From Candidatus Omnitrophota bacterium (GTDB lineage: Bacteria > Omnitrophota > JACPQZ01), in NCBI GenBank assembly GCA_016190205.1, contig JACPQZ010000048.1, positions 13,943 to 77,942 on the forward strand: a stretch of DNA of 64,000 nucleotides, in the 5' to 3' direction. Of the stretch, positions 16,966-17,088 are shown piece after piece. Every line of letters begins with the position of its first letter. Within the stretch, counting starts at the first letter, position 1. The position numbers and the translations under genes are program-made. The notes beneath the pieces were generated by a model, which ran no database searches, had not been told where the DNA came from, and worked only from the letters and a program-made list of their open reading frames with translations.

Positions 16966-17088
16966 AAACCAGAGACCAGTAACCAGTTACCAGATAGATT
17001 CCAGAAACCAGATACCAGAAAGTTGCCATGCGAGCTGGTCTCTGGTATCTGGTCTCTTCTGGTTTCTGGTAACTGGTATCTGGTTACT
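16966..17088 (+). repeat. ACCAGA-heptamer array arranged as a long inverted repeat (about 55-bp arms, about 14-bp loop), MITE-like
   Basis: The left arm (aaaccagagaccagtaaccagttaccagatagattccagaaaccagataccagaa) is nearly identical to 53017-53068. The right arm is its reverse complement. Confidence 0.75.

Follow-up and report, generated by a model that had tools for sequence, protein, structure and literature searches.

Nested ACCAG-heptamer hairpins at operon junctions of a Candidatus Omnitrophota genome and their likeness to intervening-sequence cassettes

What kind of element can occur twice in one stretch of DNA with near-identical inverted arms and yet enclose different sequence at each place? 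This is the question raised by two loci in the 64,000-nt stretch of Candidatus Omnitrophota contig JACPQZ010000048.1 analysed here (the window), which an earlier note had taken for copies of a family of MITEs (miniature inverted-repeat transposable elements) with variable inserts. In this study, we found that the two copies, e1 and e2, are homologous and are built of hairpins nested within hairpins. The orthologous site of e2 is empty in relatives, and the termini of both copies recur in longer forms that carry a gene of family PF05635, the 23S rRNA intervening-sequence protein. We consider it probable that e1 and e2 belong, as forms without a gene, to a family of hairpin cassettes built of ACCAG (AGWWACC) units, similar to the intervening sequences (IVS) of rRNA, that accept inserts at the hairpin apex.

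Two homologous copies built of nested hairpins

Copy e1 spans positions 16964..17088 (125 nt) and is a composite palindrome of ACCAG heptamers, bounded by the stop codon of an oxidase gene on one side and by the ribosome-binding site of a tautomerase gene on the other. Copy e2 spans 53012..53258 (247 nt) and fits exactly between the TGA stop codon that closes an ABC ATPase gene and AAAGGA, the ribosome-binding site of an aminotransferase gene. A four-arm alignment together with a scan for termini placed the limits of homology at 16964 and 53012 for the start and at 17088 and 53258 for the end. These limits refine the coordinates of the earlier note and bear out its claim of two near-identical loci, as the repeat finder aligned the left arms (16964-17022 and 53012-53070) with 92% identity over 59 nt and the right arms (17041-17088 and 53211-53258) with 94% identity over 48 nt. 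The pattern ACCAGNNACCAGNNNCCAGNNACCAG, which stands for four ACCAG units, matched the window at four places, namely the four arms, where none was expected from 100 shuffles. Each arm was also said to be followed by its own reverse complement; inverted arms are present at both loci, but the four-arm alignment showed the right arm to be an imperfect and register-shifted reverse complement of the left. Counted from the outside, the fourth heptamer of every arm is followed by a single irregular unit. These units (ACCAGATAGAT in the left arm and CTGGTMTCTT in the right arm, at mirrored positions) are common to e1 and e2, as is the order of the variable dinucleotides, which indicates that the two copies share an ancestor and are not two separate expansions of one unit. 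According to the folds and the four-arm alignment, eight substitutions separate e1 from e2; they open base pairs, and none is compensatory. One e1 junction was reproduced independently in a Logan contig (L120) that stops 41 nt inside e1, and a second Logan contig (L271) begins 29 nt ahead of where e1 ends and agrees with the window in 3009 of 3009 bases; this independent assembly support covers the junctions of e1, not those of e2.

The fold prediction proposed in the earlier note gave very stable hairpins for both loci: e1 folds as RNA at -71.3 kcal/mol (z -9.6) and as DNA with z -9.1, and the RNA of e2, one hairpin inside another, folds at -98.7 kcal/mol (z -9.5). The terminal borders of the arms read AG(A/T)(A/G)ACCAG on each side in the four-arm alignment. 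In e1, the outer left arm (16964..16994, + strand) is a 31-nt module, (AGWWACC) x 4.4, with five AG cores at 7-nt spacing, and the outer right arm (17058..17088, - strand) is the same 31-nt, 4.4-unit module inverted. Joined via the single T at 16995, these outer arms give a 63-nt hairpin (-35.3 kcal/mol, z -7.7) with the apex CCAG-ATT-CTGG. The apex that is left when the middle segment is deleted is that of free-standing 4+4 ACCAG hairpins in two unrelated metagenome contigs (L193 and L204). At this apex sits the inner ACCAG hairpin of e1 (16996..17057), which has 3+3 units and the loop GTTGCCATGCGAG and by itself folds at -28.8 kcal/mol (z -5.5). It begins with AGATTCCAG and ends with CTGGTCTCT, a one-base variant (TCCAG) of the terminus AGWNACCAG...CTGGTNNCT.

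The same layers are found in e2, where the outer arms (53012..53042 on the + strand and 53228..53258 on the - strand) have 4.4 units each and an outer-only construct folds at -31.7 kcal/mol (z -6.9). The left arm of the second-level ACCAG hairpin (53044..53070, +) begins with AGATACCAG, the exact terminus motif, and its right arm (53212..53227, -) ends with CTGGTATCT. Between these arms lies a third-level hairpin of 134 nt (53078..53211), which consists of AANNNCG heptamers (AAATTCG, AAATACG, AAGCACG and AAATCCG) and their complements around the loop GTTGAACCCCCGTTTTTG, is recorded as tandem-repeat rows at 53079-53209 and as inverted repeat I20, and alone folds at -38.2 kcal/mol (z -3.7). This third level is not present in e1, in agreement with the claim that the two loci differ in their internal content. 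The single layers of e1 and e2 each fold independently, with z between -3.7 and -7.7. Because the middle segments carry the terminus motif of the outer element, the irregular units of the arms are the junctions of nested hairpins, and the variable insert described earlier is explained by nesting at the hairpin apex. The presence of the first two levels in both copies implies that the composite was duplicated as a whole; the third level was either gained by e2 or lost by e1 after the copying.

Two likenesses to nearby sequence were also observed. The sequence AAAGGATAAAATT (53071-53083), inside e2 and immediately 3' of its left arms, resembles AAAGGAATAATTA (53259-53271), which lies immediately 3' of the right arm in the region of the ilvE ribosome-binding site and start; this could be the relic of the ribosome-binding site of a cargo gene, a local duplication, or chance in A+T-rich sequence. 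A comparable origin of the e1 loop as a copy of the start of the downstream gene was considered, and was dismissed as chance with 8 of 12 positions matching at a differing distance.

An empty site and related cassettes around PF05635 genes

The gene upstream of e1 encodes an oxidase of the DAO family (L-2-hydroxyglutarate oxidase in one source) and the gene downstream a 4-OT tautomerase. For e2, the upstream gene encodes the ABC ATPase, itself 3' of a gene for an FtsX/MacB permease, and the downstream gene a class IV aminotransferase (ilvE). All of these genes are on the + strand, so that the placement between co-directional genes and the neighbours named earlier stand. Beyond the source genome, the nearest relatives have an ilvE product with 79% identity and an oxidase product with 61% identity. 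The gene order lysS, ftsX, ABC ATPase, ilvE, UVR-domain gene, mcsB and clpC is common to the window and three related loci (L241, L242 and L243). The junction between the ABC ATPase gene and ilvE measures -4, 12 and 20 nt in these relatives, in that order, and 259 nt in the window, of which e2 makes up 247. The absence of e2 from its site in three syntenic relatives identifies e2 as an insertion. Two neighbouring junctions show the same picture: that between ilvE and the UVR-domain gene measures 21, 28 and 4 nt in the relatives and holds another heptamer hairpin (54151-54234) in the window, and that between ftsX and the ABC ATPase gene, which is an overlap in L241, 1 nt in L242 and outside the coverage of L243, holds a heptamer array (52283-52314) in the window. 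No period-7 run was found in the ~19 kb of the three syntenic loci. The upstream stop codon often lies within the first unit of such an element, as TAG in e1 and as TAA in two of the Omnitrophota loci described below (L248 and L270).

To which family an inserted element of this kind belongs can be judged from ACCAG hairpins elsewhere. The comparative set consisted of 239 loci (1.5 Mb) among the matches listed, selected only for an ACCAG array and hence biased toward such arrays. In this set, with loops of up to 150 nt counted, 39 hairpins have the order CCAG..CTGG (loops of 3-124 nt) and 10 the order CTGG..CCAG, and since each topology reads alike on both strands, the 4:1 bias reflects a real polarity. 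With 4+4 units, the smallest of the ACCAG hairpins end in the same phase as e1 and e2 do, and hairpins with AGWNACCAG ends are found in many phyla. Arrays of 3, 4, 5 and 6 units numbered 64, 72, 20 and 4 in the metagenome loci, a peak at four units whose lower bound is biased by the search pattern. We also observed CCAG/CTGG heptamer hairpins at successive junctions of a ribosomal-protein operon, around the genes for L6 and L18, in a metagenome contig (Ga0079218_10181267), which means that essential, highly expressed operons tolerate such elements.

In several loci of the set, the inverted arrays enclose an open reading frame (ORF) of 117-146 amino acids that matches PF05635, a four-helix bundle; the enclosed ORFs of L141, L008 and L027 match with E values of 1e-26 to 1e-37. 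In the Omnitrophota, arms with termini of the e1/e2 type surround a gene of 117-124 amino acids at six of six loci (L141, L227, L248, L256, L267 and L270), and across e1, e2 and these six cassettes 15 of the 16 termini read AG[AT]NACCAG. Within the ACCAG-selected loci, 11 of 12 PF05635 ORFs abut a heptamer array, compared with 314 of the 1335 remaining ORFs (Fisher p 1.3e-6). Four homologues were picked solely by protein similarity; they lie at the junctions ruvC/ruvA, gspE/gspF, guaA/purF and miaA/hflX, and all four are bracketed by inverted ACCAG/CTGGT arrays. Nearly all named homologues of the L141 protein come from Candidatus Omnitrophica. Further PF05635 genes with bracketing inverted heptamer arrays were seen on other contigs (L008, L027, L070, L181, L026 and L156), and in two of these, L156 and L026, the flanking arrays have units other than ACCAG.

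The favoured explanation and its alternatives

We propose that the basic unit of the family is a hairpin of ~63 nt with 31-nt arms (4.4 heptamers, five AG cores), termini AGWNACCAG...CTGGTNNCT and a loop of a few bases, and that new material enters at its apex. In the ancestor of e1 and e2, a smaller second ACCAG hairpin would have entered the apex of the outer hairpin. The composite would then have been copied into a second operon junction, with ~7% divergence since, and in e2 an unrelated heptamer hairpin of the AAATTCG type would later have entered the second-level apex. Insertion would take place between a stop codon and the ribosome-binding site of the co-directional gene that follows, without target-site duplication. 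The copied unit would be delimited by the outer arms, with the candidate machinery acting in trans; by another route, copies may have been captured during the repair of breaks at hairpin tips, which are cut by SbcCD. Because arms of the e1/e2 type bracket PF05635 genes at similar operon junctions in other Omnitrophota, e1 and e2 would be the gene-less form of the cassette. The element would be transcribed within the operon mRNA as a long, interrupted stem-loop. By analogy with rRNA intervening sequences, cleavage of its stem by RNase III is plausible, and the stem could block exonucleases and so uncouple the neighbouring cistrons. The absence of the element in relatives and the non-compensatory drift between the copies argue against a conserved regulatory role, and the element is likely to be mainly selfish or neutral.

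Several observations weigh against this explanation. The window holds two copies of the composite, and no further full-length 125-nt composite was found among the matches listed in a genome scan with ACCAGNNACCAGNNNCCAGNNACCAG and a metagenome scan with ACCAGWWACCAGTTRCCAGA, two patterns that are too general, so that the matches listed are independent ACCAG arrays from many phyla. Neither arm had a match in viral contigs. None of the six reading frames of the window gave a PF05635 match with a local hidden Markov model built from four PF05635 ORFs, and no transposase domain was found among the 18 window ORFs scanned. The likeness between the arms of e1 and e2 and those of the cassettes rests on a simple repeated unit and could partly be convergence. 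For e1, the relatives of the oxidase (59-61% identity) have other downstream genes, and synteny is lost. To our knowledge, no enzyme is known to move such an element, and we know of no demonstrated role of PF05635 proteins in mobility. The predicted stem consists of helices of 5-6 bp interrupted every 7 nt, which makes cutting by RNase III uncertain, and since the differences between e1 and e2 break pairs, they give no positive sign of selection on the RNA stem.

Could the dynamics of microsatellites alone have produced such loci? Slippage would then have grown the arrays, template switching would have made the inverted arms, and the likeness of e1 and e2 would be the outcome of two expansions of one unit or of occasional gene conversion, with no movement of an element. 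The window is rich in heptamer arrays of many units, a wider set to which e1 and e2 belong and which the earlier note had overlooked. We counted between 12 (under stringent settings) and 16 runs of period 7, spread over ~12 gene junctions; periods 5, 6 and 8-12 gave none. All arrays lie at junctions of co-directional genes on the + strand, use at least eight different units, and form hairpins at four loci. Heptamers are described as the commonest long simple sequence repeats (SSRs) of prokaryotes, with slippage proposed, in the summary of Mrazek 2007 given in PMC4679880. The ACCAG unit can also expand plainly, as (ATACCAG)x12 stands perfect in an unannotated spacer near a hok toxin gene of a Klebsiella pneumoniae plasmid (CP067450.1, 38499-38557) and on 11 similar plasmids of the IncHI1B/IncFIB type. 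A search of plasmids gave only this array, a plain microsatellite that is unrelated. Independent expansion, however, cannot give the same order of variable dinucleotides and both irregular junction units in e1 and e2 and in both arms, and the 4:1 bias to one hairpin topology also speaks against this account. Slippage predicts broad lengths and random phase, whereas the arrays are fixed at 4.1-4.9 copies with termini at a fixed phase. Nine single-unit arrays, with eight units among them, each have 4.1-4.9 copies and ~31 nt, a length equal to that of the outer arms of e1 and e2. At this size an array starts and ends on one core and displays the core five times. The module size is thus fixed regardless of sequence, which slippage would not lead one to expect, and most of these units would be incapable of forming G-quadruplexes. 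On this evidence we regard microsatellite dynamics alone as an unlikely explanation.

The arrays in question are spread over the whole window. Two of the nine, at 54154-54185 and 54197-54230, belong to the hairpin at 54151..54234, (TCGTGCA)4.6, a loop and (GCACGAA)4.9, which lies at the junction of the aminotransferase and UVR-domain genes, folds at -45.6 kcal/mol (z -4.1) and is of the same class as e1 and e2 with another unit. The others are on the + strand: (CGGGAAG)4.3 at 1467..1496, (CGTGAAT)4.1 at 29132..29160 and (GGACGCA)4.4 at 60782..60812 lie at gene junctions, (TCGTGAA)4.4 at 15283..15313 lies 5' of a gene of the AhpC family, and (GGACGTG)4.4 at 63435..63465 lies immediately 3' of a stop codon. 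At the 3' end of a 516-residue ORF, (ACGCAGT)4.4 (3555..3585) is read as an 18-residue C-terminal tail, and (AGACCCG)4.6 (52283..52314), at the FtsX permease/ABC ATPase junction, is in frame within the longest reading frame of the ATPase gene, where it is read as an N-terminal extension of the protein (MNRPETRDQRPETEGDG...). These two arrays may have altered the ends of the proteins or misled the gene callers. Beside the nine, an array of the TGCGTTG type (26891..26950, +) has a perfect 21-nt super-period in 2.9 copies (direct repeat D4). The heptamer inverted pair at 30284..30487 (TCGTGAA/TCGGTAA ... CGATNAC, I12; fold z -3.6) is a further instance of constant arms with a variable insert; it lies directly 3' of a tRNA-Met gene (30191-30265) and encloses ~96 nt of structured, non-repetitive sequence.

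An equally unlikely explanation is that the hairpins belong to the host's own regulation, as selected cis-elements in operon mRNAs that serve as processing sites, stabilisers, partial terminators or protein-binding arrays. The precise placement directly 3' of stop codons, with e1 and e2 beginning at a distance of 0-1 nt, and 5' of ribosome-binding sites of co-directional genes and the great stability of the e1 and e2 folds would suit this role. In Xanthomonas, too, heptamer repeats are found between aligned ORFs, at most 50 bp from stop codons, and are mostly transcribed (PMC4692102). It is contradicted by the relatives, three of which have the same junctions empty, with the genes there tight or overlapping, by substitutions that disrupt pairs without compensation, and by flanking genes that have no common theme. 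Scans for intrinsic terminators and promoters found no such signal at e1 or e2; the tails of the two copies read UUAUUCAAAG and AAAGGAAUAA, and neither has a U-tract. Matches of e1 and e2 in Rfam were all sub-threshold, to generic hairpins of microRNA precursors, and were rejected as an identity for the elements. A regulatory effect would in any case be compatible with the hairpin-cassette explanation, as an inserted element can still act on RNA.

The MITE label of the earlier note, in its classical sense, would make e1 and e2 deletion derivatives of an insertion sequence with a DDE transposase, mobilised in trans by a cut-and-paste mechanism that leaves a target-site duplication of constant length. 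Much of that description stands: these are short elements without coding sequence, their ends are inverted, at least two dispersed, homologous copies exist, and the site of e2 is empty in relatives, while constant arms with a variable insert are also seen in other Omnitrophota. The strict label does not, and we consider a classical MITE very unlikely. At the borders of all eight elements (e1, e2 and the six PF05635 cassettes), no direct repeat reached 2 nt. At e1, GATAGAT precedes and TATTCAA follows, and at e2, CAATTGA precedes and AAAGGAA follows; the identity of a single border nucleotide (T/T at e1, A/A at e2) carries no weight as a target-site duplication. The check for a cognate transposase among the scanned ORFs came out negative, as said above, and no RAYT gene (for an IS200/IS605-like TnpA), with which the 20-40 nt palindromes of REP/REPIN elements are associated, was found among these window ORFs. 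In addition, where longer relatives share these ends, the gene inside belongs to PF05635 and is not a transposase, and heptamers make up the inverted repeat, which extends over the entire element. Finally, a chimeric or collapsed repeat left by the assembly of this metagenome-assembled genome is highly improbable, for although short-read assemblies break at these hairpins, with both Logan contigs ending inside e1 and independent support limited to that copy, two other samples reproduce both e1 junctions to the letter, the genes on either side are undamaged and share their order with relatives, and the same architecture is found in many unrelated assemblies.

Beyond the reading of e1 and e2 as gene-less hairpin cassettes, we entertain a wider idea that is a long shot, namely that heptamer arrays and PF05635 proteins are two halves of one system. 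The 31-nt module with its five cores could be the binding site of a homopentameric ring of the four-helix-bundle S23p/IVS protein, around which the strand would be wrapped as RNA is on TRAP. The PF05635 cassette would then be a selfish element that enters the apices of rRNA helices (the classical IVS) or of heptamer hairpins, and solo hairpins and single arrays would descend from it, dispersed and stripped of the gene. Were this idea true, it would explain the dominance of heptamers among the long simple repeats of prokaryotes, the preference for about four units, and the function of the IVS protein.

Other features of the window and likeness to known systems

A number of further features were seen in the window. 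The stretch 10000-14500 has a G+C content of 0.46-0.50, compared with ~0.57 elsewhere, and contains small ORFs with weak antitoxin-like (CopG, BrnA) and PEP-CTERM matches. A perfect tandem duplication of the 18-mer CATGGCACACGTGTACCA, partly palindromic with a CACGTG core, lies at 10658-10693, and a direct repeat of 82% identity joins 11399-11453 and 14051-14105. A group I intron match on the + strand (14163-14369; Rfam 52.1 bits against a gathering score of 50) has no rRNA or tRNA gene called around it and is followed on its 3' side by an 18-nt fragment (14411-14428) that resembles the 3' end of tmRNA. Rfam found no rRNA gene in the window. The palindrome GGCAGACACAC(A/C)AGGGTGTCTG occurs upstream of genes at 20039-20081, where it forms a perfect 21-nt inverted pair, and at 49470-49491; it may be an operator or another repeat family. 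A single ORF on the + strand (33388-47361) spans 14 kb and encodes 4657 amino acids.

The findings touch on two old puzzles, the dominance of heptamers with a preference for about four units among prokaryotic repeats and the function of PF05635 proteins. In the window and the related loci, heptamer hairpins are copied whole, grow at the apex, and share their arms and termini with PF05635 cassettes of the same phylum. The link between the two puzzles is testable through the binding of the protein to the repeat, processing by RNase III, and insertion directed to the apex. There are practical consequences as well, as the hairpins break short-read assemblies and distort gene calls through shifted start or stop codons or lengthened reading frames.

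Among the known systems, the heptameric SSRs come close to e1 and e2 in their building blocks. The STRR sequences of cyanobacteria, other long SSRs, the GGGAATC repeats of Xanthomonas, the GGGGAYT repeats of Nostoc, the TAACTGA repeats of Beggiatoaceae and the four-heptamer elements of Geobacter all repeat a 7-nt unit in tandem, in which a core is conserved and other positions vary. They resemble the arrays described here in their intergenic siting between co-directional ORFs near stop codons, in their preference for about four units, and in their frequent convergent pairs that could form stem-loops. Heptamers are the dominant long simple repeats of prokaryotes (PMC4679880), and elements of four and of five heptamers have been catalogued in Geobacter (PMC2700814). 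In Xanthomonas and Nostoc, the repeats lie between aligned ORFs close to stop codons and favour four units, with 70-75 convergent pairs per Xanthomonas genome (PMC4692102). The e1/e2 unit AGWWACC differs from these in that it is not G-rich, so that the account of the four-unit preference in terms of G-quadruplexes is inapplicable. The e1/e2 family further differs in its apex nesting, in the copying of whole composites, and in arms that bracket PF05635 genes.

A second likeness is to the small mobile or repetitive palindromes of bacteria, namely MITEs, Correia/NEMIS, ERIC/IRU and REP/BIME/REPIN, which are also small, non-coding, imperfect palindromes in the transcribed intergenic regions of operons, present in some relatives and absent from others. 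ERIC elements also exist as variants with internal insertions. In contrast to these systems, e1 and e2 have no target-site duplication, and the window ORFs scanned include neither a transposase nor a RAYT gene; the arms of e1 and e2 are heptamer arrays fixed at 4.4 units without a unique consensus, and they grow by nesting at the apex. Apex nesting, the copying of whole composites and the bracketing of PF05635 genes outside rRNA were not found in a literature search whose coverage is incomplete, so that their novelty is not proven.

The 23S rRNA IVS of Leptospira, Coxiella and Salmonella (PMC4990558) resemble the Omnitrophota cassettes in that an inverted-repeat stem surrounds an ORF for a four-helix bundle of ~120 amino acids. 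Both insert at an apex, that of rRNA helix 25 or 45 for the IVS and that of a heptamer hairpin here, and both have heptamers at hand, as the Coxiella IVS carries them at its base: two to three tandem heptamers (GACAGAT) lie 5' of the S23p ORF, near the 5' processing site of RNase III, and the stem of this IVS is cut by RNase III (PMC4990558). Both are sporadically distributed, and the IVS have been suggested to be selfish or mobile in origin (PMC4990558). The difference lies in the setting: e1 and e2 are outside rRNA and have no ORF, and the cassettes related to them occupy operons of protein-coding genes.

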